Positions 4,619 to 64,000 of a stretch of DNA of 64,000 nt are shown here, piece after piece (positions within the stretch are counted from its first letter, which is position 1; the number at the start of each line of letters is the position of its first letter). Position numbers and translations under genes: made by a program. The notes under the pieces are model-generated. The model was not told the origin of the DNA. It searched no databases and saw only the letters and a list, made by a program, of their open reading frames with translations. The DNA is from Alphaproteobacteria bacterium (GTDB lineage Bacteria; Pseudomonadota; Alphaproteobacteria; MPNO01; UBA830), in NCBI GenBank assembly GCA_964291215.2, contig OZ219791.1, forward strand, positions 1,600,001-1,664,000, read 5' to 3'.

Positions 4619-6976
4619 GGTTGTGGACTCGTAACTGCTCACCCCCTGGTTCCGGCTTGATGTCGGGGTAGAGCAACGAACGGGTTTTCGTGGAGATTTG
4701 ACACTGCATGCCGATTCGCTTAGTGGTGGTCATCGAGAACGACGGGGACCGCCAGTGGGCTACTTTGGATCGAAGGCGACGAGCGGGCTGTGCCAGTTGC
4801 TTCCGGGGCTCCAGCCTCCGCATGATCTGTATGTGGAAACGCATCTCGGAAGCGGCGCGCTGATGAAGCGCAAGGCCGGGTGATGGCGACGGTCAACGCG
4901 GCGCGCGAGGAGTTCGAAGCGGCCAAGACCGCGGCGCTGCCGGCAAGGTGGCGGAAGAGGCCGTGATCCGCGTCCTCGTCATCCTGCTCGACATCCTCAT
5001 CGTCGTCCTTCTGGAGAAGACCACGCACGAGCCGGAACTCCGGTCTGCCGCCGTCACAGACGGACAAGAGCGTGCCGGAAGCAACGGCAAGGGCCCGAAG
5101 CCGAACCGGCAGATGGGCGACAACCTGCGCAAGACCATCGTCGAGGAAACGGTCGCGGCCTGCGACGCCTGCGGCGCCGACGGCCCCGTCGATCGGGAGC
5201 GCCGCACGACATCGTGTTCGAGGTCGTCGAGCGCCGCGTCGACACCGAGGAATGCCCGAAGTGCAAGGGCCGGTTCCCCGACAACATCCCGTGCAGTACG
5301 GCATCGGCATCCAAGCCCTCGTCATCAACCTGCTGGTCGCCCAGATGCTGTCCCTGCGCCGTGCCGTCGCGTTCGTGCAGTCGATCTCCGGCATCAAGCT
5401 CTCCGAGGCAACCTGCCTCGGCTATGCTTTCACGATGCGTCATGGGAGGAGGCCGCCGTGGCGCACCTCCTGCAACGCCCGATGTCGACGATTTCGGATC
5501 AACAGCAAGTGGCTCCATGTCGTGGGACCCTGACGTGCAAGTTCCCGCACCGCAAGCGCGGCCGGGAGGCAAGAGATCGGCCCGTGCTACAAGGGCGTCC
5601 TGGGCCTCGTACATGGGCCAGTGTAGCCACCAGCGGCAGCCACCTGCTGCGCGAACTGACCTTTGTCGTCGAGGCTACCGCGCGACTGATGAAGAGCCTG
5701 TTCCGCGAGGTCTGCCACAAGGTCAACAAGAGCGCATCCAAAACCCTGAACGACGCCGGGCGCAAGCGCTACCGCACCATCAGGGCGCCAGGGAACTGCC
5801 CGATATCCCGACGAAAGGAAAACGTGGACGCAAGTCCGACGCGCACAACCTGCACGAACGTCTCGTGAAACACGAAAACCTGCGCTTCACAGACGACCCC
5901 GACGTCAGCTTCACCAACAATGCCGGAGAACAGAAAATCAGGATGGCAAAGGTCAAGGTGTCCGGATGCTTCCGCACCATGCTCGACGCAAAAGCATGGT
6001 GCCGGGGCTCAAGCTACCTCACCTCCATGGCCGCACTCGGCTACAATCATCACGTTGCCACCCAGATCGCCCTCGACGGAAAAGCCGCAGACATCATCAA
6101 CGAGCACCACGACCAATCAGAACCCAACTAGGGGTGAGTAGATACGTGGACTCAAATAATTGGTTTGCGATTCTGCGGAGCAAGAATCGGCTGGCAGCCA
6201 GTTGCACGGCGGAGAGGAAGTTCCTTGTCATAACGGGTGGCGACTCGTCGGAACTCCTTGATCTTGCCGAAAAACCGCTCGATCAGGTTGCGAATCCTGT
6301 AGATCTCGCGGTCGAGCGGCCGTGGCGATGTCCGGTTGGATTTCATGACCGCGGTTGCTCCTGCCGTCTCGATCAGATGGCGTCGGTGTCGTAGGCCTTG
6401 TCGCCGACCACCGTCTCGCTCGAGGTCGGCGAGAAGCGCCTCCGCCTGCGCGCAGTCGGCCGCTTGGCCCGGGGTCAGGAACACGGTCTTCACCCTCTCG
6501 TTCTCGCCAAGATGGACCTTCGTCGTTCGTCCGCCACGGCCCGATTTGCGAAGGCTCGTCGTCCCGGGACGCCTCAGCTTGTGAACGCGCACCGACAAGG
6601 AGTCGACCATGCGCAGGTGAACCGAGCCGGGCGGGCCATCGTCGCTCCCGTCACCATCGCTCGTAAGCCTTTGAAGCTTCTCCATGCCCAAGTGCCGTTC
6701 TTGCTCCACCGGTTGAAGCGGTTGAAGCAGACGGACCGTAGCGCAGGTCGCGCCACGGCGTACCGGTGCGAAGCACGAAGAATATCCCGTTCATGACCCT
6801 CCGGTCATGCACCCGCTCCGGGCCCTGGTGCTTGTCAGGAAGCACCGAGCGGAGAACTTTTCATTCCGCGTCGCTCATGTCGTGTCGGTCGCCGCTCATC
6901 CTTCACTCTCCTTGTGAATCGCTTTCGACAAGAATAAGGCAGATCATGCAAAATGTCAACATTTGGGTACACAACC
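4619..6976 (-). mobile_element. IS5-family (IS427-like) element, transposase pseudogene 6152-6899, with IS66 inserted in its end
   Basis: TIRs ggttgtggactc/ggttgtgtaccc; TA duplication restoring intron B ggcTAactgg; RRVMNGIFFVLRTG.PWRDL and IERFFGKIKEFRRVATRYDK motifs. Confidence 0.85.
4631..6145 (+). mobile_element. IS66-family element type 1: truncated adenine MTase (4755-4883) plus frameshifted TnpC (4883-6131)
   Basis: TIRs gtaactgctcacccc/gtatctactcacccc; 8-bp TSD gtggactc at 4623-4630 and 6146-6153; FTNNAGEQKIRMAK...SGCFR motif. Confidence 0.9.
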
Positions 6977-8490: not shown

Positions 8491-9942
8491 ATGAAGATTG
8501 CAGCCCTGTGGGTCTCGGGCGAGCAGGGATAGCAACACGATCGCCAGCCAGGCCTTGGTTGCCTACACGCCATGGCTACTGCGTGGCGCCCGACATGGTC
8601 ATCGAGGATGACGGCTATACCGGCGCGGTTCTCGAACGCTGGAGCGTGTCAGGGACCTCGCCGCGGAGGGGCGCGCCGTCCTGGTCCATGCCCCGGATCG
8701 CTTGAGCCGCCGCCTATCAGGTTCTGATCATCGAGGAGCTGGCCCGGCGTTGAGACCGTGTTCCTGAACGCGCCGTCGATGGAAACCCCCGAAGACCATC
8801 TCCTCGTCTAGGGAATGATCGCGGAATACGAGCGCGCGCAGATTCTGGAGCGTTCCCGTCGCGGCAAGCGTCGTCGGGCGCGGCGAGGTCGCCGGCGCAC
8901 CCTATGGCTACCACAAGAAAACCCAGGACAGCGACGCTTTCTACGAAATCACCGAACCGCAGGCGTCCGTGATCTACCGCCATTACACCGAAGATCACGT
9001 CAGCATCGGCGCGATCGCTCGCACACTCAACAAGTGTCCCCACGTCTTCCGGGCGCTGGGAACGCTCGGTGGTGATCCTGCGGAGTACAAGGGAAGAGCG
9101 TGCAAGACCCGGGTTGCGCCGCAGCGTGCGGCCTCTGCGCCGCCGCGACAGCAACACTGCCGGTCACGAACGGCCGCGACTGGATCGAGATCCCGGTGCC
9201 AGCGATCGTCAGCGAAGAGACCTTCGCCCTCGCCGAAGAGCAACGCAACAAGGTCTTCTCCAGGCGTAGGACCAAAACGCCCAGCGTCTCGCAGGGGCGT
9301 GCGGCAAATGCGGCTACGTCGGCCCGAACCACTGCCCGCAAGATCTCCTACTACCGCTGCCTGGGTTCCGACGCCTGGCGCCATCTCAACGGCCCGCTGT
9401 GCAACAGCCGTCCCGTGCATCTGCTCGATGACATCGTATGGCTGGTCCGCTTGCTCGAAGATCCGGCGCTCGTGAAAGCAGAGATCGGACTGGAGGCAGC
9501 CCGTGTCTCCGATCCAAGCCAGCAGCGCGAGGCCGACCTTCGGCATCGGCTGGGTCCGCAAGGCCATCGACCGCTTCGTCACGGCCTATCAGGAGGAGTT
9601 GATCACCATCGACGAGTTGCGCAACAGAACGCCCGAGCTCCGCCGTCAGGAACAAGCGCTGCATCGCGAACTGCAATCCACCGTCGATCGCGCCAAGGAT
9701 CGAGAGACTTATCTTCGGCTCGCCGAGACTCTGACCGGCTTTCTGGCGCGGCTGCGTTCGTCAGCCGAAACTCTGGACATCGCCGAACGGCAGCGTATCG
9801 TCCCGCTCCTCGTGAAGGAGATACTTGTCACCGAGGACAAAATCACTATCCGCCATTCCATCTCGCCGGGCGCGGACCCGTCGAGACCCGACAACGGCGG
9901 ACCCGAAGGCGAGAGTTACCTTTTGCGTTCGGGGCGTCGTCA
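8491..9942 (+). pseudogene. Large serine recombinase (catalytic, recombinase, Zn-ribbon and coiled-coil domains), frameshifted
   Basis: ggag RBS then MKIAAL; EDDGYTG, PDRLSR, GMIAEYERAQILERSRRGK, IPVPAIVSEETF, YYRC and LLVKEILV motifs spread across frames. Confidence 0.85.
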
Positions 9943-11447: not shown

Positions 11448-11630
11448 GATTACGCAACCTGATGTCTGGAAATTGTCGTGAAGCTCTCAGTCATCGAGCT
11501 GTTCCCATTTGATCTTGGTTTCGGTTTCCCATTTGTAACTGCCCAGGTCTGCTTCCGGCGATCAGCCACGGGTTATGGACTGAATCTTCCGGTCTGCTGC
11601 CGCGGACGCGGAGGCGAGCGGCGGGGGATT

Positions 11631-13033
11631 TCAGAGGCGCAGTCTCGGGATCAGCTGCATGGGATCGGGATGCGCCAGGGTTTCGAGGACATTCCAGCGT
11701 TGCTTTCGGGCTGTTGCGATGACGGAACGCAGGCTGGCGAAGTCGCGGGCGCCTTGCATTGATCGGAAGCCGCCCGAGATTTTCTGGCGCAGCTTGCCCA
11801 TGCGGAGGTCGCGCTCGGCCTGGTTGTTCGAGAAGGGGGTTCTCGGGTCGGTGAGGAAGCGCAGGCAGCCCTCCTTGTATTTCTGGAGCCGGAGGGCGAG
11901 GTTGTGACCGATGCGGCGCTTTTGTCGTCCGTGCTTTCCGCTCTGGAGGGGCGCCATCTCTTCGTGAGAGGCGATGGCCTGCTCAAGGATGCGGTCCCAG
12001 GCTCGGGAGATGCGGGCCACCAGTGAAGCGGGCAGGTCGCGGTCATTCTTGCGGGCGAAGCGGGCGGCTCTGTTGGCACGGCTGAGGAGCGGGTGCGTGG
12101 TGGCTGCCCAGTTCTCGATCTCGATCAGGGCTTGGAGTTCGCGCAGGTGATGGGCATTGCAGGCCCCGTGGCGCACGCCTTGGAGAGCGAAGTAGGTGGC
12201 GTAGTCGTCATGGATGACGATGCCGTTGAGCTTCTCGTCGATGTGGCTGCGCCCGGCGGCGATGCGCAGGATGGTCAGCAACGGGGTGCACAGTACGTGG
12301 AGCCATTGGGTCCGGGCGGCGATGCGGATGCCGGTCTCGTCGAGGTGTTTGACCGGGGCCGCGGTGCGGATGATCTCGCCGACACGGTCGAGGAAGCCCT
12401 CGAAGCGCCGGGCGGTGCGTCTGCCCATGGCGGCGATGGTGGCGGTTGAGAGCCTGACCGCGAAGAGGTCGCTCATGACTTCGGCGACGCGCTTCTCCGG
12501 AATGAACTGCGCGTGCAGCAGGTAGGTCACCCACGCGGTGATACGCGGCCCGTACTGGACCGGGGCGCCGTTCGGGAAGACGGCTGTCGTCACGGTGCCG
12601 CAGGCGGCACAGAGGCAGCGGTGCTCGGTGACCTGCGGTTCGGGCACATCGAAGACCTGCCGGCAGACGGGGGCTCGGTGACGCTCAGCGGCCGACAGCG
12701 GCGCGCCGCAGCCCGCACAGGCGCAGGGATCATGATCGACGACGTGGTCGGGCGTCGCGGTCCGCTCCAGAGTGGTTCCCTTGTGGCTGGCCGCCGCCTG
12801 TCGGACGTGCCGCTCCGGGTGCGCTGGGGTCCGCTCTTCTTCTTCAGACCGTCGCTGGCCGGCGACCGGGAGCTGGTGGTGCTGTCGAGCGCGGCACTGC
12901 GCTCGAGTTCGGCAATCCGCTCGCGCAAGTGGGCGTTCTCCCGCTCCAGCGCGTCGTTCTCCCTGACCAGCGCCGCGCTCAGGCGCAGCAGCCCCTGGCC
13001 CGGATGGCTTTGATGACCGTCATCGCCAGGCAT
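11631..13033 (-). pseudogene. IS66 TnpC transposase, frameshifted
   Basis: Leucine zipper with DSTTSSRSPASDG, Zn-finger, HLDETG, HDDY, CNAHHLREL, FSNNQAERDLR, KISGGFRS. Confidence 0.9.
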
Positions 13034-13101
13034 TGTGGGGTGAAAAGGTCCTGCAGGCACGCAAAAGCCTCGTCGTGGCCGGCGAGGTCCTCGCGCCACC
13101 G

Positions 13102-13761
13102 TCACGGGACCTCGACGGCCATGATCGCGGCCAGCACCGCCAGGCGTTCGCCCGCCGGCATGGCCTCGTAGAGCCGGCCCCAGTTGGCCGCCTTGCGCTT
13201 GATGCGCTGGCGGTCGGTGAAGTTCCGGCCGGCGAAGCGCGCCCAGTGCACCCGGTCGGGCGCGAAGTTGAACCACACCACCTCGGTCCGCACCCGGGCC
13301 TGGGTCGTCACCTGCAGCGCCAGCCGGCGCCAGCCCGACAGCAGGTCGTCATAGAGCGCAGACGGGTGGCCCGAGACCATCACCTGGCAGGGCAGACCCT
13401 TGAGCAGCTCAAGCAGCGCGACGTGGTCGGCCTCCGCATACTCGAAGCGGTAGCGCTGCGACGAACGCCGGGTCGCGTGCAGATAGGGCGGATCGCTGTA
13501 GACCAGCTCCGGGCCCAGAAACGCAAACGACGCCAGAAAGGAGTGGGCGCAGCCATGCACCAACTCCACCGGGTAGTCGCAGCCAAAGGCCTCAAGCGCC
13601 CGCTCATCGAGGTCGATCCCGATCGAGCGCACGGCAGCAGGCTTGCGCTTCATCAGCGCACCGCCCCCCAGGTGACTCTCGATATAGACAGAGTGCGGCG
13701 GCATCAGCGCAATCAGCGCCTGGCTCAGACCCGTCGTCGCCTTCGATCCGAAATACCCCAC
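13102..13761 (-). CDS. Compact D12-class (Dam-like) N6-adenine DNA methyltransferase
   Basis: GAGGAG RBS plus GTG; YFGSK (motif X), YIESHLGGG (motif I), GIDLD and catalytic DPPY; uninterrupted 219 aa. Confidence 0.88.
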   Translation of the reverse strand: MGYFGSKATTGLSQALIALMPPHSVYIESHLGGGALMKRKPAAVRSIGIDLDERALEAFGCDYPVELVHGCAHSFLASFAFLGPELVYSDPPYLHATRRSSQRYRFEYAEADHVALLELLKGLPCQVMVSGHPSALYDDLLSGWRRLALQVTTQARVRTEVVWFNFAPDRVHWARFAGRNFTDRQRIKRKAANWGRLYEAMPAGERLAVLAAIMAVEVP

Positions 13762-14231
13762 CAGCCGCTCCTCCCATGCGAGAGGGCAACCCATAGGCGC
13801 GCGCGCCTATGCAGTCAAGGCCGAGAGCAGCGACACGGCGAACAAAATCAGCAAGCTCTCACACTTGGCAGGGTACCTGGGTAGTTACTCCCATTTTTCG
13901 TCGATGAGGACCGCGGTTAAGAGGCGCTCCAACGAGGCGAGGTTCGGAAAGACCCTGACTTTGGAGGTGCGCCGCTTGAGCTCTTGCTGGATCGGCCGCT
14001 CGATACCGTTCGAGGTTCGCATGCGCTTGCGGTGAGCATCGGGCAAGGTGAAGACAGCGAGCCCCGCATTCTTTTCCAGCCAGGAAGCTTGGATGCTTGT
14101 CGCGATAGCTGGCCACGAGGGCGCCCAGTTCAGCCTCGGCGGTTTGGAGTGAGGAGGCGTTCCAGACGGTTCCGAGCTGTTTTCCAATACGTTTCCTGAT
14201 GTCGTTGTTCGGTGCACGGCGTTTTGCGCTA

Positions 14232-15350
14232 GTGTCTTGTCATTCGTCAAATATCGGATAAAGGCGTTTGAGTTTCACGCGGGCATCGTCGGTGGTGAAC
14301 TGCCAATCCACCTTGGCCTGGATGCGGTCGCCTGCCAAGCGGCAACTTCCCGGCGTAGCACCTCGATGCAGTCGATGCGGCGGTTCAGGCGGATCATGAC
14401 GTTGAGTTCCACCACGTTCAGCCAACTGCCATGCTTGGGGGTGTAGACGAACTCGAAGCGGTCCCACAGGGCCTTGGCCTCGTCCGGCGGGTAGGCCTCG
14501 TAGAGGGCGCCGGGGAGTGTTGAGATTGTCCATCACCAGGGTGATGGTGGTGGCATCTTGGTAGCGCCCGGCGATGTCGGCCAGGAACTGCGCCCAATCG
14601 ATCTTGCGCTCGGTTACCTTGGTCATGCGCTTGCCGGCCAGGGGTTCCATGAAGACGTTGCAGGTACCGCAACGTCGATACTCGTAGTCGTTACGCGCTG
14701 GCTGTCCCGGCGCCATGGCGATCGGTTGCCGTGTCTCGCCGGTCGGGGCGTTTCGTCCATGCAGACCACGGGGAAAGCGGCGGGACGGCGATCGAGTACC
14801 TTCGCTGCGGCGAAGTCGGCGTTCCCTTGAGGAGGAATCACCCACCCGCTGCCATGGCTTGAGGCAGTTTTTTTAGAACACGCCGCACCGTCTCGTGTGA
14901 CACGGTGTAACCAAGCTCGACAACGCGGTCGGCCAGCAGCCGCAACGACCATTGCGCGTAACCCTCAGGCGGTTCACCACAACTCAGGGCCACCAAGCGC
15001 GCCTCGAAGACGCCGTCGGCTTTTCGCATGTAGGTAGGACGGCGTCCTTGCCGGCCACCCAATGCCGCCTCCAACCCCTCGAAACGCTTCTTTACTCGGT
15101 CTACTTTGCGCATGCTGATGCGCAGAATCTCAGCAATGACCTTCCCAGTCATCTGGCATTCATTGAACGCGCTCTCGTCGCAGTTAAGCAGGGCGTTGAT
15201 TACCTTTTGCGACAGGTGCGAGCCCTTGATCTCCGAAAGTTCTGCCCGTTCGTCCAGGGTCACCACGTAGCGTTTCATACTCCGACCTCCATCCCGAATG
15301 GACGGACAGTCTAGCACCAAATGTACGACATATCATTGCTGACATAACAC
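14232..15350 (-). mobile_element. IS630-family element (degraded) inserted in IS256
   Basis: TIRs gtgttatgtca/gtgtcttgtca; TA duplication; WSLRLLADR, VCMDE, LVMDNLNT and TPKHGSWLN motifs. Confidence 0.9.
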
Positions 15351-15804
15351 TAGGTGGAACTGGCAGCGCTGCCACGTCGCCGTGCCCAGCACCGCGCGTC
15401 GTGCCGCTTTCAGCCCGGCATCCGAGACGATGAAGGTCGTACCATGCAGGGCTAGCAAGCTTTCCAGGAAGGCTCTCCAATGGACCTCGGCCTCGGAGAG
15501 CGCCACAGAGAGCCCCAGAACGTGCCTGCAGCCCCTATTCCGATGGCCGAGAGCACTGCAACATCGCGCACAACGCCGTCATGGCGGGCTTTTTCATAGC
15601 GCGCATCCAGGATCAGGTATTTCATCAGGGGCCGGTTGCGCGGCGAGTTCTTCATCGAGCAACCTGGTGGCCCGGCTGACCTGAGAAGAGGACAGGCTCC
15701 CGAACTCGCGCATTACATCCTGCCGCGTGGAAACACCTTTGATGTACATCTCGGCTACGGCGCGAGAAGATCGCTGGCCGCGTTCAAGCGACTGGGGACG
15801 GGTC

Positions 15805-17057
15805 GATTACGCAACCTGATGTCTGGAAATTGTCGTGAAGCTCTCAGTCATCGAGCTGTTCCCATTTGATGTATGCCTTGGTTTCGGTTTCCCATTTTTC
15901 GTCGATGAGGACCGCGGTTGAGAGGCGCTCCAACAAGGCGAGGTTCGGAAAGACCCTGACTTTGGAGGTGCGCCGCTTGAGTTCTTGCTGGATCGGTCGC
16001 TCGATGCCGTTCGAGGTTCGCATGCGCTTGCGGTGAGCATCGGGCAAGGTGAAGACAGCGAGCCCCTCGGGCGCATTCTTTGATGCTTGTCGCGATAGCT
16101 GGCCACGAGGGCGCCCAGTTCAGCCTCGGCGGTTTGGAGTGAGGACGCATGGCTCCGAGCTGTTTTCCAATACGTTTCCTGATGTCGTTGTTCGGTGCAC
16201 GGCGTTTTGCGCCAAGTGGAACTGGCAGCGCTGCCACGTCGCCGCGCCCAGCACCGCGCGTCGTGCCGCTTTCAACCCAGCATGGTCATCCGAGACGATG
16301 AAAGTCGTGCTATGCAGGGCTAGCAAGCTTTCCAGGAAGGCTCTCCAATGGACCTCGGCCTCGGAGAGCGCCACAGAGAGCCCCGGAACGTGCCTGCAGC
16401 CCCTATTCCAATGGCCGAGAGTACCGCGACATCGCGCACAACGCCGTCATGGCGGGCTTTTTCGTAGCGCGCATCCAGGTATTTCATCAGGGGCCGGTTG
16501 CGCGGCGAGTTCTTCATCGAGCAACTTGGTGGCCCGGCTGACCTGAGAAGAGGATAGGCTCCCGAACTCGCGCATTACATCTTCGGCTTGCCGCGTGGAA
16601 ACACCCTTGATGTACATCTCGGCTACGGCCAGCATGACGGCGCGAGAAGATCGCTGGCCGCGTTCAAGCGACTGGGGGGTCGTCCCCGTGACCGGCCGTC
16701 TTTGGCACCTGAACGGTAACAGTGGGGGTGTCGATCCGCTTGTAGCCGTTGGCATAGCCCTGTCGTTCCGGTGTCCGGTGGCCCGCTTTCAAGTGCTGCT
16801 CGCGCTCGATTTGCATCGCAAGCTCGAAGAGCTGACCAAAGATCCGCCCCAGATCCGTTGCTCCGTTTGCGATCAGATGTTCCAAAACAGTCCCGATCGT
16901 CGTAGTGTGTCGCAGGTCCATTCGCTTCCTCCATGAATGTTTACAGCTCCATGGGATAGCACGATGGCGCCGCGTTTCACTGGGGGGCTAGCCCCCCCAG
17001 TGAAACGCCTCAAAGCGCAAACCTCAGACAAATTTCCAGACATCAAGTTACAGTACC
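15805..17057 (-). mobile_element. IS256-family element copy 2 (both ends present, degraded)
   Basis: TIRs ggtactgtaacttgatgtctggaaat/gattacgcaacctgatgtctggaaat; AEMYIKGVSTR and WQRCQFH motifs. Confidence 0.88.
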
Positions 17058-24227: not shown

Positions 24228-24902
24228 GATGCCTTTCCTGTTGGCGACTCTTCGATTGCACCAAGATACTGCCGGTTGCGGGTGCGCTCTTCCGGCTGCC
24301 CATCCGTCCAAAAGCGATCAGGTCCTCCACCGCAACATCGTTTCGTGTGGCCGTGCGCGTCTGGACAACTCGCTGCAGAGCCGGTGGGTCTGCGCCACCG
24401 TGCCGTGGTGTTGCGACCTGTCCCGTGACCGTTGCAGCACAGCCTGTTCCGCCGACAGATGCACAGGGAGAGACACGGCTGCATTATAGTTCATCGTCCC
24501 CGGACATGACAATCGGGAATCGGCGGCGCCCTCCGGCCGGGAACTACGGTCACCGCTCATTATTCGGGCCGGATGCTCCGACACCGCGGCCTGCAGGCGA
24601 AGCCGGTTGCCGTCGGCAGGTCGCTTGCTGGGCCGCACCGGCCTTCGCTTCCGGGTGACTGTACTCACATCTCGAGCGGTTCGCCGAAGGAGTCCCGGCC
24701 TTGCTTGCTCTCGAAGGCGAGCCGGGACCGTTGCTGTCGTCGCCGATCGAGGCGGCGGGATCCGCAGGTTCTGACGGGTCCACCGACATGGAGTTGCGGG
24801 AACCTGCCGCCATGATCCCGTGATCCGGCGCGAGGATGTCTCGTGGCGCGATCCCGGCTATAAACGCCGCTGATCGTTGTCACTGTAGTACCGGAGCGTG
24901 AA

Positions 24903-38414: not shown

Positions 38415-41123
38415 ATGATGGACAAGGTTGCGGACTTGGTCGGGACAGCGGACATAGCCGGGGTGAAGGCGTCGGAGCCCGAACGCCCGTCTTCCGGCGC
38501 CGCGCAGTCGCCGATGATGGTCCAGTACTTCCAGATCAAGAAGGATCATCCGGACGCCATCCTCTTCTACCAGATGGGCGATTTCTACGAGATGTTCTTC
38601 GACGATGCTGTGAAGGCCGCCGAGGCGCTCGACATCACCCTGACCCGGCGGGGCAAGCACGGGGACGAGAACATCCCCATGTGCGGGGTTCCGGTCCAGA
38701 CTGCCCAGACCTATCTGGCGCGCCTGATCCGGCGCGGCTTCCGCGTTGCCGTTTGCGAGCAGACGGAAGATCCCCGGGCTGTGAAACAGCGCGGTTCGAA
38801 GGAGGTCATGCGCCGCGAGGTGACGCGCGTCATCACGCCGGGCACGCTGGTCGAGGACGCGCTCCTCGATGCCCGGCGTCACAACTATCTTGCGGCCGTT
38901 GCTGACGCTGCCGGCGGGCACGGGCTGGCCTGGCTCGACATCTCGACCGGCGCCTTCTTTACCGAACCGGTCACAGCTCCGGCGCTTGCGGCTGCGATCG
39001 CCCGCATCGAGCCCGGCGAACTCCTGGTTCCCGAACGGCTTGCGTCCAGGCCCGAGGTGGCCGCCATCTCGCGGGATCTCGGCGACAGGCTGGCGATGGT
39101 CCCTTCGGCGTCGTTTGACAGCGAGGCGGCGCGCCGCCGGCTCGAGAAGATATTTGCCGTCCGGTCGCTTGATGGATTCGGCGATTTCACCCGTGCGGAA
39201 CTGTCGGCCGGAGGCGCGCTCCTCGATTACATCGAACTGACCCAGCGTGGCAAGATGCCCGGGTTGCAGCGCCCGCGGCGCCTGCGCCAGGGCGCGGTCA
39301 TGGACATCGATCCCGCCACCCGTCGCAATCTCGAGCTGGTCCAGACCATGTCCGGCGCTCGCGAGGGCTCGCTCTTGGACGTGATCGACTGCACCGTGAC
39401 CGGAGCGGGTGCGCGGCTGCTGGCCGCCCGGTTGTCGGCTCCGCTGACCGACACTGCCGCCATTCGTGCGCGTCACGACGCCGTCGACTGGTTTGCCGCA
39501 CAGAGAGACATGCGCGACGACATGCGCGGCGCGCTGCGTTCGGCTCCCGACATGGAGCGCGCGTTGTCGCGCCTGCTTATGGGGCGTGGTGCGCCCCGCG
39601 ACCTCGGTTCGCTGCGTGGCGGGCTCGCCGCCGCAGCCGACCTGCGGCCGTCGCTGGCCACCGCCGGCGAGCTGCCGCAGGAAATCGCGGGCGCCATGGA
39701 GGAACTTGGGGATCACGGCGCGCTCATCGACCGTCTCGACCGTGCGCTCATGGACGACTTGCCGCTCTCGACCCGGGACGGCGGCTTCGTCAGGGCCGGT
39801 TTCTCGGAGGATCTCGATGAACAGAGACACCTCCGCGACCAGAGCCGTACCCACATTGCCGTCCTGCAGGCGAGATACGCGGAGGAGACCGGAATCGCGT
39901 CGCTCAAGATCCGGCACAACAACGTGCTCGGATATTTCGTCGACATCAAGCCGGGCCATGCCGACAGGGTTGCGGCCGTGGGCGGAGACCGGTTCATCCA
40001 CCGCCAGACCCTCGCCTCCGCAGTCCGCTATACCACGGTCGAGCTCGGCGAGCTCGAAGGCCGGCTCGCTCAGGCCGGGGAGCGCGCGGTGGCGCTCGAA
40101 CTCGACCTGTTCGAGGAGCTGGTTGCCGGCGTCGCGGAGCGCGCCGACGCCATCTTGCGCACCGCCGCGGCGCTTGCGGTGCTCGATGTCGCCTGCGCGC
40201 TCGCGGGGCTTGCCGTGCGCTGTCGCTACGCGCGTCCCGAGATGGCTGACGACACCTCCTTCAGCGTCACCGCAGGCCGCCATCCCGTCGTCGAGGCGGC
40301 GCCCGGGGGCACGGCGGGTGCAAACTTTGTCGCCAACGACTGCGACCTCGACGAGGCGCAGCGCCTGTGGCTCATGACCGGGCCCAACATGGCCGGCAAG
40401 TCCACCTTTCTGCGCCAGAACGCGCTGATCGCGGTACTCGCCCAGATGGGCTCCTTCGTTCCGGCCGAGGCGGCGCGCATCGGCGTCATCGACCGGCTGT
40501 TCAGCCGCGTCGGTGCCGCCGACGATCTCGCACGCGGCCGCTCGACCTTCATGGTCGAGATGGTGGAAACGGCGATCATCCTGAACCAGGCGACCGAGCG
40601 GTCGCTGGTCATACTCGACGAAATCGGCCGCGGCACTGCAACCTTCGACGGGCTGTCCATCGCCTGGGCGACCCTTGAGCATCTGCATGACCTGAATCGC
40701 TGCCGGACCCTGTTCGCCACCCATTTTCACGAACTGACCTCGTTGACGGAGCAGCTGCCGGCGCTCTGCTGCCACACGATGCGGGTCAAGGAGTGGGAGG
40801 GCGAGGTCGTCTTCCTGCATGAGGTCGTCGGCGGCACCGCCGACCGCTCCTATGGCATCCATGTTGCCAAGCTGGCCGGTCTTCCCGAGGCGGTGGTCGT
40901 CCGCGCGCGCGAGGTGCTGAGCGTGCTCGAACAGGGCGAGCAGTCCGGCGCGCTGGCGCAGCTGGCGGAGGACCTGCCGCTGTTTTCGGCGCCGGTGCGA
41001 AGGGGGCCAGCAGCACCGGCTGCGCCGTCGCCGGTCGAGGAGGCGTTGCGGGCGGTCAATCCCGACGAGCTTTCTCCGCGCGATGCGCTCGACGCGCTGT
41101 ACCGGTTGCGGGCGATGCTGTGA
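38415..41123 (+). CDS. mutS: DNA mismatch repair protein MutS
   Basis: [38 protein letters not shown]; start approximate. Confidence 0.97.
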
Positions 41124-43619: not shown

Positions 43620-46028
43620 CTAGCGCTACCATGTCCTGAAAAAGAGGGCTGGACATTGCCGATCGGGCGGTGTACGGTCCCTCGCCATGCGGACCCAATC
43701 GAACATTCTTCGGACGCTGCGCGGCGCGGAAGCGCGGTCCCGGGTGGCCGGGATCCTGTCGCGGGAGTCGTTTGCCAGCCGGCAGTCTCTGGGCCGCCGG
43801 GTGTGCGAGGAGTTTGCCTTTGTCGACGCCCTCGGCCGGTGGCAGGTTTCGGGATGCCTCAAGGCCCTGCGCACCCTGGCGGCGTCCTCGCCGGAGATCG
43901 TCCTGCCGCCGCCCCGGGTGCCGCCGCCGGACCGAACGCCGCGTCAGCTGGATGAGGCCGTTCCGGCGCCCGTCGGGGTGCCGGGGCGGGTGTCGGAGAT
44001 CGAAGGGCTGGAGGTGTTTCCGGTGACGACGGTGGTGCAGCGCACGGTGTGGAACACGCTGATCGCGCGCGAGCATCCGCACGGCCTGACGACCTTCGCG
44101 GGCCATCAGGTGCGCTATTTGGTGACCTCGGGACACGGAATCCTGGGCGCGGCCGGGTTCTCGGCCGCCGCCTTGCAGGTGCAGGCCCGGGACCGCTGGA
44201 TCGGGTGGAGTGCGCCGCAGCGCCGGGATCACCTCCACCGGGTGATCGGTCTCAGCCGCTTCCTGATCCGTCCGGCGGTCCGCTGTCCCCACCTCGCCAG
44301 CCAAGTGCTGGGCCGTCTGTTGCGACGGCTGCCCGCGGATTTCGAGGCCCGCTACGGCCTGCGGGTGTGGCTGGTGGAAAGCTATGCGGATGCGGGCGTG
44401 CCGGGCACCTGCCTGCGGGCTGCCAATTTCGTGTGCGTGGGCGAGACGAAGGGGCGGGGCCGCCAGGACCGGTATCATCGCCGGGAGAAGACCGGGAAGA
44501 CGGTCTGGATGTACCCGTTGCACCGGCGTTGGCGCCGGGATCTCGGGGTGGCCGAAGTGGAGCGATGGCCGTCGCTCGAGCCCGGCGAAGGTCTCGGTGC
44601 ACGGGAGTGGGCCGCGAACGAGCTGGGAGGAGCACCCTTGGGGGATCGGCGACGGGCGGCGCGACTGGTGAAGAGCGCTTCGCTGCTGGCGGAGTATCCG
44701 GGGCAGAAGATCCAGGCCCACCCGGACAGCAGCCGTACGGTCATCAGTGCCTTCTACCGGTTGATCGAGCAACCGGTGGACAGCGCCATCACGGTGGACA
44801 ACATCCTGGCGCCTCACCGGGAGCGTACCCTCCAGCGCATCCGGGGGCAGCGGACGGTGCTGGCGATCGAGGACGGGAGCGATCTGAACTTTGCGCGGCG
44901 TCCGGGGTGTGACGGTCTGCAGGTCATCGGCACGAACCAGACCCGTGCCTCGACCCTGCACGCCACGCTGGCGGTGACCGACACCGGCCTGCCCCTGGGG
45001 GTGCTGCGGTTGGGGTTCGACCCGAAGCATGCGAAGACCGTCGCCGCCGGGACGAAAAGCCGGCGATGGCTCCACGGATTCACGGATACCGTCGACGCCG
45101 TCCGGGAAGTCGGCGGCAAGACCCGCGTGATCATGGTCTGCGATCGGGAGGCGGATTTCTTCGAACTGTTCGATCTCCAGCGCCAGCACCCGCGGGTCGA
45201 GGTGCTGGTACGGGCCCGGCACGATCGGGTCCTGGGGCCCCACCGCCCGAAGCTGTTCGCTGCCATGCAAGCCGGCCCGTCCGACGATCAGATCGAGATC
45301 GAGATCGACGGCCTGACCGAACGCCGGAAATCGCGCGGGAAACCGGCCCGGCGCAAGCGTGTGGCCAACTGCGAACTCCGACATCGTCGCCTGACCCTGC
45401 CGTCGACCCTGGAGGGCAAGGATCCGGTGTCCGTCTCGACGGTCCATCTGGTCGAAACCCACCCGCCCGAGGGCGAGAATCCGGTGCAGTGGTTCCTGCT
45501 CACCACGCTCCCGGTGCGCACCGGGCCGCAAGCCGCCGAGGTGGTCGGCCACTATCTCCAGCGCTGGAAGATCGAGGATTTCTTCCGCGTCCTGAAATCC
45601 GGCTGCCAGGTGCAGTCCCTGCTGTTCCGCAAGGCCGAACGCCTACAACGGGTCACCGCCATCCATGCCGTGATCGCCTGGCGCATCATGGTCCTGACCC
45701 TGCTCGGACGACAGGTCCCGGACTGTGAACCCGCGCTGATGTTCACCGATCCGGAACTGGCCTTCCTCCGCGACTACGCGCGCGAGCAGGCCATGCCGGC
45801 TCCCGACACCCTCGGCGGCGCCGTGCGTCTGGTCGCCCATCTCGGAGGGTATCGGGACCGCAAGCACGACCCTGAACCCGGATACCAGATCATGTGGCAC
45901 GGCTCCAACCGGCTGAGCGGCGCCACCCTCGGTCATCGAATCGGCTTCCAGGCCGGCCAGCGGCAGGCCCTGGTCCGGGATCGGGCTCCCCTGGTTCAGC
46001 CATAATTGTCATGCCTCGGTAGGGCTAG
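43620..46028 (+). mobile_element. IS4-family element
   Basis: Imperfect TIRs ctagcgctacc...tga / ctagccctacc...tga enclosing one long ORF. Confidence 0.75.
43687..46005 (+). CDS. DUF4338 (DruA-like)-IS4/Tn5-type transposase fusion
   Basis: N-half: WN.LI..EH, RDRWIGW, RFLIRP, GTCLRAANF..VGETKGRGRQD; C-half: LGDRR, AFYR, EDGSDLNF, CDREAD, Y..RW.IE.FFRVLKSGC. Confidence 0.85.
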   Translation: MRTQSNILRTLRGAEARSRVAGILSRESFASRQSLGRRVCEEFAFVDALGRWQVSGCLKALRTLAASSPEIVLPPPRVPPPDRTPRQLDEAVPAPVGVPGRVSEIEGLEVFPVTTVVQRTVWNTLIAREHPHGLTTFAGHQVRYLVTSGHGILGAAGFSAAALQVQARDRWIGWSAPQRRDHLHRVIGLSRFLIRPAVRCPHLASQVLGRLLRRLPADFEARYGLRVWLVESYADAGVPGTCLRAANFVCVGETKGRGRQDRYHRREKTGKTVWMYPLHRRWRRDLGVAEVERWPSLEPGEGLGAREWAANELGGAPLGDRRRAARLVKSASLLAEYPGQKIQAHPDSSRTVISAFYRLIEQPVDSAITVDNILAPHRERTLQRIRGQRTVLAIEDGSDLNFARRPGCDGLQVIGTNQTRASTLHATLAVTDTGLPLGVLRLGFDPKHAKTVAAGTKSRRWLHGFTDTVDAVREVGGKTRVIMVCDREADFFELFDLQRQHPRVEVLVRARHDRVLGPHRPKLFAAMQAGPSDDQIEIEIDGLTERRKSRGKPARRKRVANCELRHRRLTLPSTLEGKDPVSVSTVHLVETHPPEGENPVQWFLLTTLPVRTGPQAAEVVGHYLQRWKIEDFFRVLKSGCQVQSLLFRKAERLQRVTAIHAVIAWRIMVLTLLGRQVPDCEPALMFTDPELAFLRDYAREQAMPAPDTLGGAVRLVAHLGGYRDRKHDPEPGYQIMWHGSNRLSGATLGHRIGFQAGQRQALVRDRAPLVQP

Positions 46029-54617: not shown

Positions 54618-54703
54618 CTTAGCGTGCACGCATCGTGCTGCGCCCGGGGACAGACCAATTCGGCAGCTCAACGTTTCGCTGTCGGCAGTGGGCAAATGGC
54701 GGC

Positions 54704-56284
54704 GTATCTACTCACCCCTAATTGGGTTCTGATTGGTCGTAGTGTTCGTTGATGATGTCTGCGGCTTTTCCGTCGAGGGCGATCTGGGTGGCGACGAGTG
54801 GGTTGTAGCCGAGTGCCGCCATGGAGGTGAGGTAGCTCGAGCCCTAGCACCATGCTTTTGCGTGGAGCATGGTGCGGAAGCACCCGGACACCTTGACCTT
54901 TGCCATCCTGATCTTCTGTTCTCCGGCATTGTTGGTGAAGCTGACGTTGGGGTCGTCTGTAAAGCGCAGGTTTTCGTGTTTCACGAGACGTTCGTGCAGG
55001 TTGTGCGCGTTTGCGTCCACGTTTTCCTTTCGGCGGCGGCGGCGGGATGTCGGGCAGTTCCCTGGCGCCCTGAGTGAGGATGGTGCGGTAGCGCTTGCGC
55101 ACGGCCCGGAGGTCGGCCTCGTTCAGGGTTTTGGATGCGCTCTTGTTGACCTTGTGGCAGACCTCGCGGAGCAGGCTCTTCATCAGTCGCGCGGTAGCCT
55201 CGACGACAAAGGTCAGTTCGCGCAGCAGGTGGCTGCCGCACAGCTGGTGGCTACACTGGCCCATGTACGAGGCCCAGGACGCCCTTGTAGCACGGGATGA
55301 TGCCGATCTCTTGCCCGCGCTTGCGGTGCGGGAACTTGCACGTCAGGGTCCCACGACATGGAGCCACTTGCTGTTGATCCGAAAGCCGGTCTCATCGACA
55401 TTGGGCGTTGCAGGAGGTGCGCCACGGCGGCCTCCTCCCATGACGCATCGTGAAAGCATAGCCGAGGCAGGTTGCCTCGGAGAGCTTGATGCCGGAGATC
55501 GCCTGCACGAACGCGACGGCACGGCGCAGGGACAGCATTTGGGCGACCAGCAGGTTGATGACGAGGGCTTGGATGCCGATGCCGTACTGCACGGGATGTT
55601 GTCGGGGAACCGGCCCCGGGCCTTGCACTTCGGGCATTCCTCGGCGCGGCGCTCGACGACCTCGAACACGATGTCGTAGAGGACGCGGCGCTCCCGATCG
55701 ACGGGGCCGTCGATGTCAGCGCCGCAGGCGTCGCAGGCCGCGACCGTCTCCTCGACGATAGTCTTGCGCAGGTTGTCGCCCATCTGCCGGTTTGGCTTCG
55801 GGCCCTTGCCGTTGCTCCCGGCACGCTCTCGTCCTTGTCCGTCTGTGACGGCGGCAGACCGGAGTTCCGGCTCGTGTGTGGTCTTCTCCAGAAGGACGAC
55901 GATGAGGATGTCGAGCAGGATGACGAAGACGCGGATGACGGCCTCTTTCGGCACCTTGCCGGCCGCACGCAGCGCCGCGGTCCGGGTCTTGGCCGCTTCG
56001 AACTCCTCGCGCGCCGCGTTGACCGTCGCCATCACCCGGCCTTGCGCTTCATCAGCGCGCCGCTTCCGAGATGCGTTTCCACATACAGATCATGCGGGGG
56101 CTGGAGCTCCGGAAGCAGCTGGCACGGCCCGCTCGTCGCCTTCGATCCAAAGTAGCCCACTGGCGGTCCCCGTCGTTCTCGATTACCACCACTAAACGAA
56201 TCGGCCTGCAGTGTCAAATCTCCACGAAAACCCGTTCGTTGCTCTACCCCGACATCAAGCCGGAACCAGGGGGTGAGCAGTTAC
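54704..56284 (-). mobile_element. IS66-family element type 1, second copy (truncated MTase 56032-56160 plus degraded TnpC)
   Basis: Same TIRs as 4631-6145; 8-bp TSD atggcggc. Confidence 0.92.
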
Positions 56285-59034: not shown

Positions 59035-60197
59035 TCATCTGGAACGGGAGTAGGTATCATTGTATTGTATCTGTCCGGGTGTGAGCATGTAGGTCATGGC
59101 GATGCCACACGCCCCTTGGCGGTGCTGGTCTTGAGCGACGAGGAACGGTCGTTTCTGGCGGGTCAGGTTTGGTGACACCGGATTGCGCGCTCGATGGCGG
59201 ATCGGTGCCGCATGATCCTGCGCTGTGCGGACGGTCTGGATAACAAGGCGGTGGCGGTCGAGCTTGGCGTGCACGAGCACACGGTGGGGAAGTGGCGCCG
59301 CCGTTTCGTGAAGGATCGGTTGAAGGGCCTGTCGGACGCTCCCCGGCCAGGACGGTCGCGGACCCTTGCGGACGAGCGGATCGCCGAGGTGATCGAGCGG
59401 ACGTTGACCACCACCCCGGCCGACGCCACCCATTGGTCGCTGCGCACGATGGCGCAGGAGACCGGTCTGTCGCACACGACGATCCGGCGCACGTTCGGCC
59501 TGCAGCCGCACCGGGCCGAGACCTTCAAGCTGTCCTCGGACCCGCTGTTCGTCGACAAGGTCCGCGATATCGTCGGGCTCTATCTCTCGCCGCCGGACCG
59601 CGCGTTGGTGCTGTGCGTCGACGAGAAGAGCCAGATCCAGGCCCTCGACCGCACCCAGCCCGTGCTGCCGATGCTGCCGGGCATGCCTGAACGCCGCCCC
59701 CACGATTACAAGCGCCACGGCACCACCTCGCTGTTCGCGGCGCTGGATGTCGCCACCGGCTCGGTGATCGGCAAGTACTACCGGCGCCACCGTGCCAGGG
59801 AGTTCCTCGACTTCCTCAAGGTGATCGACCGCAATGTCCCGGACGGGCTCGACATCCACATCGTCATGGACAACCACGCCACCCACAAGACGCCAGCGGT
59901 CAAGGCGTGGCTGGCACGGAGGCCGCACTGGCACGTCCACTTCACACCAACGTCCGCCTCCTGGCTCAATCAGGTCGAACGCTGGTTCGCCGAGTTGACC
60001 CGCAAGCAGTTGCAGCGTGGCGTGCACCGCTCGACCCGCCAACTCGAGGCCGACATCCGCGCCTTCATCGAAACCCACAACGAAAACCCCAAGCCCTTCA
60101 AATGGACCAAGTCCGCCGACGATATCCTCGCCGCCGTCAAACGCTTCTGCCTCCGCTTCGAACAAAACTTATGCAACGAACTTTAGATTCAGGTGAC
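59034..60197 (+). mobile_element. IS630-family element (transposase largely in frame, 59194-60186)
   Basis: TIRs gtcatctggaac/gtcacctgaatc; TA duplication; VDEKSQIQAL, MDNHATHK, SWLNQVERWF. Confidence 0.93.
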
Positions 60198-62200
60198 TAG
60201 ACGATCAGCCAGAACGGGAAGGTGTCGGGCAGAATGTTCGGCAGCCAGATCTTCAGATAAGAATGATGGAAGCTCAGGTGCATGATCCGCTCGTAGAATC
60301 CGACCAGGAACAACCAGCCGCCGGCCGCATACAGCAGAGCGACGCGCCGGGAATACCCTCCCCAACGAATGAGGTAGACGGCTATGAATATTGGAATAGC
60401 CAGTTTTTGACCGACCACGAGCATGATCAACAGCATCAGCGTCAAGTAGCCGAAGAACGCCGCCGACTTCGCCAGAACCGCCTGCTCGGAGCCTACGGCC
60501 ATCGCCCCGCCAAGGCCTCCGTTCATCGATGTCGCCGCCCGAAGATCCCGGGTATCGAAATAGAAGGTGAAGGCCGCGAATATCGCCCCCGGTATGGCGA
60601 TGGTAATGGGAAACGCCTGAACCGAATCCGGCCATTGCAGCGAGTGAAAACCCGCGCCCACGAAGATGACCAGCAATATCAGCGAAAAGGGCCAGGAAAT
60701 GATCGGGTTCCCTGCGCGGCCTTCGCCGGCATTGGGCTCGCTTCCCTCATCGTCGGAACGTTTTGCCTTGATGACGCCCCGCGCGGCAAAAATGATGGTG
60801 AGGACGATCAGCGCAAAAATGATGAGAACGATCGGCCGCTCAAGCCAACTAATGCCGTCGTAGGCGCGCATGCTGATCTGGAAGGAATTTTCCATTATGG
60901 AGCCGAGGATGAGGGCGAGGATGAGCGGGGGCCGCGGCCACCCGCCCTTCTTCATGGAGTAGCCCACGATCCCCATGATGATGCAGGTCACCCAGTCGCC
61001 GAGCGAGGAGCCCCCAAGCCACGCGCCCATGAAGACGAACAAGATCACGCCCGGGACGATCAGATAACTCGGGAGGAATGCGACCCGGGCGATCTGACGG
61101 CTCCAGACCATCAAGAGCGCGGTGGCCATGATATTGGCCACGACGATCATCCACACCATTCCAAAGGTCAGGTGCAGTTCGGAGGTCAGCATGTCCGGAC
61201 CGGGCTTCAGGCCCTGGATAAGTAGCGCCCCCAACAGGATGGCCGCACCCAGGCTCCCGGGGATTCCGAACGCCACGGTCGGAACCAATGAGCCCCCTTT
61301 GGTCGCGTTGTTGGCTGCTTCCGGCGCGATAACGCCGCGAATGTCGCCCTGGCCGAACTGCGATTTGTCTTTTGCGCTCTGAACCGCGTGACCGTACGCG
61401 ACCCAGTCGACAATCGCCGCGCCCAGGCCCGGCAACATGCCCACATAGGTCCCGATCGCCGCGCACCGCGTCGCAAGCCACCAATGACGAAAAGCGTCCT
61501 TGATGCCCTCGATCATGCCGCCGCCGGCGGTCTGTTCCTTGGGAACGCGGGAGATGGAGATATTGCGGGTCGCCAGCTCCATGAGTTCGGGAATCGCGAA
61601 GAGCCCCAGAACCACGGGAATGAGAGGCAAATTGTCGATGAGGTAGTCGGTGCCGAAATAGAAACGCGGAATGGCTACCGTCTCGGCATACCCGATTGTC
61701 GACATCAACAACTCGAGCGCCGCGACCGCAAGGCCCTTCATGATCGATCCGCCGCTAAGGGAACCGACCATCGCGAGGCCGAGAACGTCCAGCATGAAGA
61801 GCTCCGGAGACCCGAACGCGAGGATGATGGGCAGGATGAGCGGCAGCGATGCCGCGAGGATCAAGGCGCTGAATACCCCGCCGAACGCGGAAACGGTAAA
61901 GGCGGTGCCGAATGTCCGCGAGGCATGCCCTTTCTGGGCCAGTGGGTAACCATCCAATATCGTCGCCTGGGAGGCGACGGTGCCGGGAATTCCCAGCATC
62001 ACCGATGCGATGGTGTCACTGGTTGTGGTGACGGCGAACATCCCCAACAAAAGAGCGAAAGCCGGCACCGGATCCATGCCGAAGGTGAACGGCAACAGGA
62101 GAACCAGCCCGATGATGCCGTCGAGACCCGGAATGGCGCCAAGCCCAATCCCGATGAAAACGCCGAGAAACAGGAAGCCAATGGACGGCCACTCGAATAC
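60197..62200 (-). pseudogene. tctA: TctA permease with C-terminal TctB-like extension; 5' end cut by IS630
   Basis: TctA motifs GIPG..SQATILDGYP and GDIRGVIAPEAANNA; frame is open up to the IS junction at 62201. Confidence 0.8.
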
Positions 62201-62203
62201 CTA

Positions 62204-62718
62204 GTGTTATGTCAGCAATGATATGTCGTACATTTGGTGCTAGACTGTCCGTCCATTCGGGATGGAGGTCGGAGTATGAAACGCTACGTGGTGACCCTGG
62301 ACGAGGCGGAACGGGCAGAACTTTCGGAGATCACGACCAAGGGCTCGCACCTGTCGCAAAAGGTAATCAACGCCCTGATCCTGCTTAACTGCGACGAGGG
62401 CGCGTTCAATGAATGCCAGATGACCGGGAAGGTCATTGCTGAGATTCTGCGCATCAGCATGCGCAAAGTAGACCGAGTGAAGAAGCGTTTCGTTGAAGAG
62501 GGGCTGGAGGCGGCATTGGGTGGCCGGCAAGGACGCCGTCCTACCTATATGCGAAAAGCCGACGGCGTCTTCGAGGCGCGCTTGGTGGCCCTGAGTTGTG
62601 GTGAACCGCCTGAGGGTTACGCGCAATGGTCGTTGCGGCTGCTGGCCGACCGCGTTGTCGAGCTTGGTTACATTGATACCGTGTCACACGAGACGGTGCG
62701 GCGTGTTCTAAAAAAAAC
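62204..62718 (+). mobile_element. IS630-family 5' part (orfA up to the A-run frameshift site), cut by IS66
   Basis: Same element as 14232-15350; ends at aaaaaaac. Confidence 0.9.
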
Positions 62719-63129: not shown

Positions 63130-64000
63130 GATTACGCAACCTGATGTCTGGAAATTGTCGTGAAGCTCTCAGTCATCGAGCTGTTCCCATTTGATGTATG
63201 CCTTGGTTTCGGTTTCCCATTTTTCGTCGATGAGGATCGCGGTTGAGAGGCGCTCCAACGAGGCGAGGTTCGGAAAGACCCTGACTTTGGAGGTGCGCCG
63301 CTTGAGCTCTTGCTGGATCGGTCGCTCGATGCCGTTCGAGGTTCGCATACGCTTGTGGTGAGAATCGGGCAAGGTGAAGACAGCGAGCCCCTCGGGCGCA
63401 TTCTTTTCCAGCCAGTCTGCGAAGCCTGGATGCTTGTCGCGATAGCTGGCCACGAGGGCGCCCAGTTCAGCCTCGGCGGTTTGGAGTGAGGAGGCGTGGC
63501 TCCGAGCTGTTTTCCAATACGTTTCCTGATGTCGTTGTTCGGTGCGTGCTGCACGGCGTTTTGCGCCAGGTGGAACTGGCAGCGCTGCCACGTCGCCGCG
63601 CCCAGCACCGCGCGTCGTGCCGCTTTCAACCCGGCATGGTCATCCGAGACGATGAAGATCGTACCATGCAGGCCACGGGCTAACAAGCTTTCCAGGAAGG
63701 CTCTCCAATGGACCTCGGCCTCGGAGAGCGCCACAGAGAGCCCCAGAACGTGCCTGCAGCCCCTATTCCGATGGCCGAGAGCACTGCAACATCGCGCACA
63801 ACGCCGTCATGGCGGGCTTTTTCATAGCGCGCATCCAGGATCAGGTATTTCATCAGCCCAAGGGGCCGGTTGCGCCAGGCGGTGAGTTCTTCGTCGAGCA
63901 ACCTGGTGGCCCGGCTGACCTGAGAAGAGGACAGGCTTTCGATCCCGAACTCGCGCATTACATCTTCGGCCTGCCGGGTGGAAACACCCTTGATGTACAT
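63130..64000 (-). mobile_element. IS256-family element copy 3 (runs off right edge)
   Basis: Same end and transposase motifs as 15805-17057, with fewer deletions. Confidence 0.9.

Follow-up and report, generated by a model that had tools for sequence, protein, structure and literature searches.

Fungal RIP ruins repeated mobile DNA in a homology-dependent manner through C-to-T changes made by a methyltransferase-like enzyme; fresh duplications are hit and unique genes are largely spared. We know of no homology-dependent way of mutating repeated DNA in bacteria, and the end of insertion-sequence (IS) blooms in symbionts is usually ascribed to drift and large deletions.

Other described systems remove short pieces of DNA. 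In deletion-biased nonallelic gene conversion, short alleles overwrite long ones among paralogs and neutral repeats shrink cooperatively; the process is eukaryotic, with a bias of ~3.4-fold, and in primates it is stronger for long indels (PMC3280953). Large loop repair, as far as the available text of PMC2504288 describes it, removes unpaired loops beyond the mismatch-repair limit irrespective of nicks. It acts on loops from 8 to hundreds of nucleotides, the loop-directed mode of removal is known in yeast, and neither a narrow size window nor a sequence preference is among the features described there. According to the same text, bacterial mismatch repair is efficient only to ~4 nt and E. coli repairs 5-8-nt loops at falling efficiency, so the size edge set by MutS is not absolute. 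In bacterial pseudogenes, deletions outnumber insertions, ~40% show microhomology and Ku-LigD is absent; the available part of that study gives power-law sizes with an excess of multiples of three, with repeats masked (PMC6054270). The E. coli topA variant R35P is a single-gene mutator producing 1-7-bp deletions independent of repeats, with lengths that include 1-4 bp; spread among repeats is not described in the portion of the source available (PMC6954433). Topoisomerase I prefers C at -4 (PMC7587558, available in part).

The deletions reported here work like deletion-biased nonallelic gene conversion with a RIP-like outcome, yet lack the defining features of RIP. As in RIP, repeated mobile DNA is ruined in dependence on repetition and unique genes are largely spared. 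However, the product is a 5-7-nt deletion instead of a C-to-T change, and the rule that duplications are hit and unique DNA is spared does not hold, with young near-identical repeats spared and single-copy DNA marked at low density. Compared with deletion-biased conversion, the process here is bacterial, locked to 5-7 nt and patchy within one genus, has a start-site preference, leaves flanking SNPs behind and has removed 4-13% of each copy. The pattern also differs from ordinary pseudogene decay, in that lengths of 2-4 nt form a trough and losses of 5 or of 7 nt each occur about half as often as those of 6 nt. Searches of open-access literature, mostly at the level of listings, gave no account of a bacterial deletion pattern locked to such sizes.

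The IS630 copy and other mobile elements of the window

The window, meaning the whole stretch of 64,000 nucleotides analysed, belongs to a genome of 6.15 Mb with 64% G+C, ~28% of which consists of repeats of six or more copies. Sequence related to this genome is present in sponge metagenomes. The TA-flanked IS630-family element at 14236..15352 (minus strand; Pfam HTH_32 and DDE_3) is one of 37 near-full copies in the genome and carries 13 deletions of 5-7 nt, each common to 9-35 of the 37 copies. At three more sites, gaps of 5-6 nt have reached fixation in the family or almost so. The frame of orfA (14838..15278, minus strand) has been kept through five 6-nt losses, whose junctions near 15251, 15228, 15192, 15080 and 14906 occur in 31, 29, 32, 26 and 26 of the 37 copies. 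The orfB remnant, which encodes the DDE domain (14240..14850, minus strand), has 5-7-nt losses near 14847, 14803, 14792, 14781, 14648, 14514, 14390 and 14331, together with a frameshifting loss near 14748.

A 5' fragment of the same family (62200..62716, plus strand) retains the long allele at each of the five sites in orfA. The original prediction had described five 6-nt deletions and one amino-acid change between the two, and the alignment of 14236-15352 with 62200-62716 bears this out with exactly five 6-nt gaps and five mismatches, four synonymous and one Ser/Gly as the codons are read by eye. The microhomologies CCTGatCCTG and CAcgacCA are likewise present as claimed. The fragment is itself cut at a slippery A-run, and it abuts tctA (both within window:60197-62716), which is without approximately the first 30 profile positions.

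Comparison with a reference combining the long alleles from the 37 near-full copies gave 13.9 deletions and 19 substitutions per copy. There are 22 segregating deletion alleles of 5-7 nt, most of them in 40-95% of copies. A relative with 74% identity, in the related genome G004, retains the long form throughout, including at the three gaps nearly or fully fixed here, so the gaps are deletions. The four IS630 copies of G004 itself are 28-51 substitutions apart with zero gaps.

Similar losses are found in the other old families of the window. A dead IS256-family copy (15805..17057, minus strand) belongs to a family of 75 copies, each with ~10 deletions of 5-8 nt per kb on average. The three IS256 deletions cited as examples in the original prediction are real and common to 32, 71 and 63 of the 75 copies; a second copy (63130..64000, minus strand), which extends past the window, has the long alleles at these sites. 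A 3' fragment of the family (13885..14235, minus strand) adjoins the IS630 copy. The largest family, with 123 copies analysed, is IS66-like in that its DNA is 65% similar to that of an intact IS66 transposase in the sister genome. Its dead copy at 4631..6146 (plus strand) has 18 deletions of 5-7 nt; between this copy and a second one at 54703..56284 (minus strand) there are 42 substitutions and 15 gaps, 13 of which measure 5-7 nt. A DDE_Tnp_1 (IS4/IS5-type) remnant (6200..6950, minus strand) represents 12 copies with 9.4 deletions of 5-8 nt per kb per copy. Repeats in the regions earlier assigned to IS1634 and an intron RT do show 5-6-nt gaps, but the fragments gave no Pfam match in support of these labels; a weak Pfam resolvase match lies at 8815-9075.

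Three elements served as internal controls. The young IS66 element at 11520..13888 (minus strand) has 11-12 near-identical copies without any 5-8-nt gap among them. An intact 330-aa IS630-family transposase (59194..60186, plus strand) has 5-6 diverged relatives in the genome with 1.3 deletions per kb, and a single-copy transposase ORF of 772 aa, a DruA domain fused to an IS4 transposase, is intact (43687..46005, plus strand). The view that mobile elements are riddled with deletions thus applies to the old families and not to these three. A Dam-like adenine methyltransferase of 230 aa is encoded within the young IS66 element (ORF at 13102-13794); it has about ten intact copies in the genome and matches in G001, G004 and, 28 in number, G036.

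Deletions in repeats and in single-copy DNA

Unique deletions of 1 to 9 nt numbered 113, 33, 33, 26, 150, 312, 165, 45 and 24 in 17 families plus IS630, with two families partly overlapping; the de-duplicated count of 5-8-nt deletions is 635. The lengths peak at 5-7 nt, have a trough at 2-4 nt and show echoes at 12 and 18, a pattern far beyond chance. The survey analysed 19 of 35 repeat seeds, the other sixteen being unselected and mostly overlapping earlier ones. Family 34 (3 copies) was left out and family 33 used solely as a control. Most later tallies exclude family 1 and the overlapping stretch of family 6, and the earlier ones of frequency and linkage also exclude family 1; indels with a local identity under 0.8 were omitted. 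Seventeen of the 18 families with enough copies have 7-19 deletions per kb per copy, and the one remaining family, which is young, is free of deletions in this size range. Small deletions, mostly of 5-7 nt, have cost the old families 4-13% of their bases. The density of pairwise 5-8-nt gaps rises with copy number: over eight rising copy-number bins (at most 60 pairs each, with functional genes among the low-copy bins) the values are 1.2, 1.8, 2.9, 3.1, 3.9, 6.9, 7.1 and 9.7 per kb. Substitutions over the same bins show no rise, going from 41 to 27 per kb. Microhomology is enriched at the breakpoints without being a requirement: of 627 unique 5-7-nt deletions, 211 lack it and 152 show a single base.

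The lost pieces show a weak, one-ended sequence preference, S followed by R-Y-C at the start, which holds in held-out families (cross-validated test score 0.28 vs. -0.27 ± 0.08). R-T-C starts account for 128 of 456 repeat events (71 expected) and A-T-C starts for 60 (30 expected); ATC starts 7 of 23 deletions in the related genome G002 (0.7 expected). The motif score correlates with allele frequency (rho 0.23, n=360); of the 276 sites with the best motif, only 55 have a deletion. C at -4 of the cut was found in 100 of 136 cases (74% vs. 55% expected). In 155 single-copy events the start preference is not significant (RTC 30 vs. 29.8, ATC 17 vs. 13.2), although the first 62 of these events had given a positive result in a matrix test. 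It would thus seem that the preference belongs chiefly to the step acting in repeats, and the step of original deletion and that of loop cutting may differ in cause.

Single-copy DNA was compared over 1.09 Mb aligned with the sister genome G001 (94% identical; 1.58 of its 5.0 Mb) using our own gene finder, with the polarity of losses taken from the asymmetry between the two genomes and no outgroup. Intergenic losses of 5-8 nt number 87 here and 13 in G001 (0.85 vs. 0.13 per kb). Intact genes have 53 losses of 6 nt here compared with 2 in G001, similar numbers of 3-nt losses (14 vs. 15) and one loss each of 5 and 7 nt. Disrupted genes, or pseudogenes, have 25 losses of 5-8 nt here and 2 in G001 (0.31 per kb), and intergenic one-base indels show no excess (171 vs. 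166). Because of the asymmetry and the in-frame-only losses in genes, a lineage-specific source of 5-8-nt losses acts genome-wide, with selection keeping only in-frame products in genes. The earlier impression that host genes are untouched is correct inside the window, where the sole short loss relative to the sister genome is intergenic, but does not extend to the genome, in view of the 53 in-frame 6-nt losses. This intergenic single-copy loss (24531..24532, unstranded) comprises 7 nt, or 8 nt relative to the sister genome; it is present here and in strain X2 and absent in the conspecific X3. A host gene of strain X2 has an in-frame loss of 12 bases at window:21934; the 3.2-kb contig concerned shows just 3 substitutions.

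Among the relatives, G002 (~75% identical) shows these deletions at 2.5 per kb, measured on 18 of the ~46 copies in one family. The corresponding value for G004 is 0.33 per kb, from 12 of ~20 homologous copies, and the single-copy DNA of G001 is free of an excess of 5-8-nt losses. One of the three tested relatives (G002) shows the pattern, and the distribution of the trait is patchy and does not track similarity.

In repeats, 599 distinct 5-8-nt events were counted in 796 copy-kb (0.75/kb vs. 0.85/kb in intergenic DNA). Repeats nevertheless carry 10.8 deletions per kb, as copies have the same deletions in common. The agreement between 0.75 and 0.85 per kb may be a coincidence, since intergenic DNA is partly constrained and covers a longer time span than the IS copies. 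The deletion density of single-copy DNA is ~12-fold too sparse to account for the repeats. Thus, the repeats need a homology-dependent step in which the same allele spreads between copies.

The frequencies and linkage of the alleles agree with such spreading; copies and pairs are non-independent, so the significance of these comparisons is overstated. Deletions of 5-7 nt have a mean allele frequency of 0.32-0.35, compared with 0.13-0.17 at lengths of 1-4 nt, 0.13 at 9-10 nt and 0.06-0.08 from 15 nt upwards. Most IS630 copies carry the derived state at 13 of 22 deletion sites, but at 5 of 64 SNPs. All four gametes occur in 71-77% of deletion pairs at least 20 nt apart, and the sharing of length alleles among paralogs fits no tree, a hallmark of deletion-biased conversion. 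Within 30 nt, the frequency-matched r2 is 0.58 for SNP-SNP pairs (141 pairs) and 0.21 for deletion-SNP pairs (67 pairs). At 69 common sites without microhomology, the main allele is present in 2360 copies and a same-end allele of other length in 107, which argues for copying and not for repeated cutting. Polymorphism inside the deleted hexamers (0.13-0.18) is like that of the flanks. Judged from the allele frequencies, conversion likely runs from long to short; the read-derived contigs of the strains end within the repeats.

Repair genes and candidate enzymes

The mutS gene (38415..41123, plus strand) is intact, as the original prediction had stated, and its five Pfam domains are all present; near the N-terminus it has lost 27 bases in frame in comparison with the sister genome (window:38493). 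Open frames of polA, dnaQ, mutL and topA are present in all five genomes. The recombination machinery is present, with open frames of recA, recF, recO, ruvABC, recG and an addA-like gene. Mismatch repair looks functional, given that one-base indels show no excess. Of 40 E. coli repair proteins, 31 were matched in this genome, some only to paralogs, and holE, recC, mutH, sbcB, recX, nfi, ung, rdgC and sbcD gave no match. A scan of 96 of 130 lost and 68 of 71 disrupted genes relative to the sister genome (1.58 of 5.0 Mb) contained no lost repair gene, and gyrA, which it had flagged, proved intact.

Two repair genes have unusual residues. At the position of E. coli D372, the topA product of the two affected genomes has Asn (here; L241, G000:C2:1592431-1596732) and Ser (G002). 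Among 31 other genomes, 29 have an acidic residue there and the remaining two have Asn. R35, R168 and the catalytic residues of TopA are intact, and the protein has no more odd residues than those of the relatives. Topoisomerase I is therefore a minor lead, and residue 372 a weak one. In mutL (L169, G000:C2:1389547-1392897), Arg-to-Trp and Gly-to-Arg changes lie at positions conserved in the other four genomes. A 1699-aa ORF at G000:C2:2751814-2756913 has RecQ-like and UvrD-like matches.

None of the searched enzyme families follows the trait across genomes. Type IB topoisomerase, ATP ligase (PF01068), Argonaute (Piwi) and Y1 transposase were each found in 0 of 5 genomes and Ku was not found in this genome, which speaks against Ku-LigD end joining. 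NucS/EndoMS or other mismatch-centred cutting was discarded because no NucS was found here and SNPs are not enriched at deletions. The presence of extra GIY-YIG, Toprim, HNH, DUF559 or Cas1 genes does not follow the trait; the DUF559 gene is absent here and present in the affected G002. The IS66-borne Dam-like methyltransferase was dismissed as a cause, being intact in the unaffected G004 and only a weak fragment in the affected G002. Hairpin extrusion is not supported, as flanking stems show no excess, and neither is a symmetric staggered cut, as the motif is at one end only and both ends match in 2% of 5-nt events vs. 15% if independent. Guided attack by Argonaute or CRISPR was rejected in view of the missing Piwi domain and of 111 spacers with four partial matches of 16-25 nt outside the arrays, none full length. 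The two CRISPR arrays, of ~96 and ~17 repeats, lie beside cas1 (G000:C1:574247-581180 and C2:2068487-2069543).

Proposed mechanism, alternatives and meaning

Our main reading, to which we give a probability of about 0.55, combines genome-wide low-level losses of 5-8 nt with a likely one-way copying of 5-7-nt losses between repeats by a putative loop-clipping enzyme. Its starting points are the lineage-specific excess of 5-8-nt losses in single-copy DNA, of which genes keep only the in-frame 6-nt class, and the state of the repeats, where each deletion is one fixed-breakpoint allele with mosaic sharing and a high derived frequency, largely without neighbouring SNPs. When copies with a long and a short allele pair in recombination, a 5-7-nt loop would form that MutS handles poorly. 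The loop would be cut out, preferably at R-T-C or A-T-C starts, and the strand sealed without fill-in. Flanking mismatches would then be restored or the pairing undone, so that the deletion alone is transferred. Each copy would both donate and receive alleles, and erosion would scale with copy number and age, killing old families and leaving newly arrived ones clean. A bolder version, which we hold tentatively and with some doubt, is that these sponge-associated alphaproteobacteria have an enzyme, probably mobile or of recent acquisition, by which single-stranded loops of 5-7 nt are cut at R-T-C/A-T-C and resealed, giving rise to a self-propagating deletion drive, a bacterial counterpart of RIP.

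The original prediction had offered three explanations: an extreme deletion bias filtered by selection, a repeat-targeted inactivation process, and an artefact of assembly or base calling in multicopy or modified DNA. The last is rejected as next to impossible. Read-derived contigs from three samples carry the deletions, and long and short alleles coexist in X1, X2 and X3. A 183-nt X1 contig with a depth of 1319 vs. 44 for unique DNA (~30 times) spans three junctions without a gap. Moreover, identical sequence keeps the bases in some copies and loses them in others, young multicopy families are clean, and only in-frame losses survive in genes. The check does rest on read-derived contigs instead of raw reads, and the three samples come from one study with the platform off record, X1 possibly being the source sample. 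The deletion bias exists, as the single-copy excess indicates, but is ~12-fold too sparse for the repeats. A corresponding reading, in which a genome-wide mutator such as a topoisomerase I variant acts together with proliferating deleted master copies and unbiased recombination, and selection spares host genes, is improbable. The ~100-fold rate of 1-7-bp repeat-independent deletions in E. coli topA R35P (PMC6954433, available in part), the enrichment of C at -4 and the non-acidic TopA residue 372 in both affected genomes speak for it. However, the residues equivalent to those of R35P, R168 and the catalytic site are unchanged, allele frequency depends on deletion length, and under unbiased processes the frequency spectrum and linkage of deletions should equal those of SNPs, whereas they differ here.

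Repeat targeting is correct insofar as a homology-dependent step is needed, but the step acts through the spread of a deletion allele between copies. A RIP-like induction, in which repeat pairing triggers fresh cut-and-rejoin at preferred sites and shared deletions are independent events, would explain why density rises with copy number, why deletions are unlinked from SNPs, and why the motif is seen in repeats and not clearly in single-copy events and correlates with frequency. We consider it unlikely, because independent cuts of 5, 6 or 7 nt should mix lengths whereas microhomology-free sites have nearly one allele, because a deletion occupies so few of the best-motif sites, and because near-identical young repeats are untouched. 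In addition, the size signature occurs in single-copy DNA too, and the deletions are not centred on polymorphic sites. A passive filter is somewhat more plausible than induction, though still improbable. Here short donor strands would invade copies, and mismatch repair would cancel events with SNPs or 1-4-nt loops and miss loops of at least 5 nt. Pairing geometry would slightly favour short-allele donors, an advantage that would raise deletion frequencies as events accumulate, and allelic recombination between strains would act likewise in single-copy DNA. The lower size edge equals the MutS limit (PMC2504288, in its available text), mutS and mutL are intact, and the share of microhomology is like that of ordinary pseudogene deletions (171/396 in the available part of PMC6054270). 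The filter also predicts the decoupling from SNPs and needs no new gene, and none was found. It predicts neither a start-site preference that tracks frequency nor the sharp fall above 7-8 nt, and G001 and G004 have the same core genes yet lack the pattern. The earlier proposal that slippage loops escape MutS meets similar difficulties: it fits the lower edge of 5 nt, but not the upper edge of ~8 nt, the microhomology-free third, the sister genome without an excess or the R-T-C preference.

The genus offers a natural test of deletion-biased conversion and loop repair in bacteria. The trait is present in two genomes and missing in two others, so its cause can be found by comparison. It is possibly a new enzyme system, and an enzyme that precisely removes short loops would, if true, be a new DNA-processing activity. 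One-way spread from copy to copy would progressively destroy repeated mobile DNA: if the self-propagating version is true, small deletions would spread across all homologous copies and extinguish whole insertion-sequence families.
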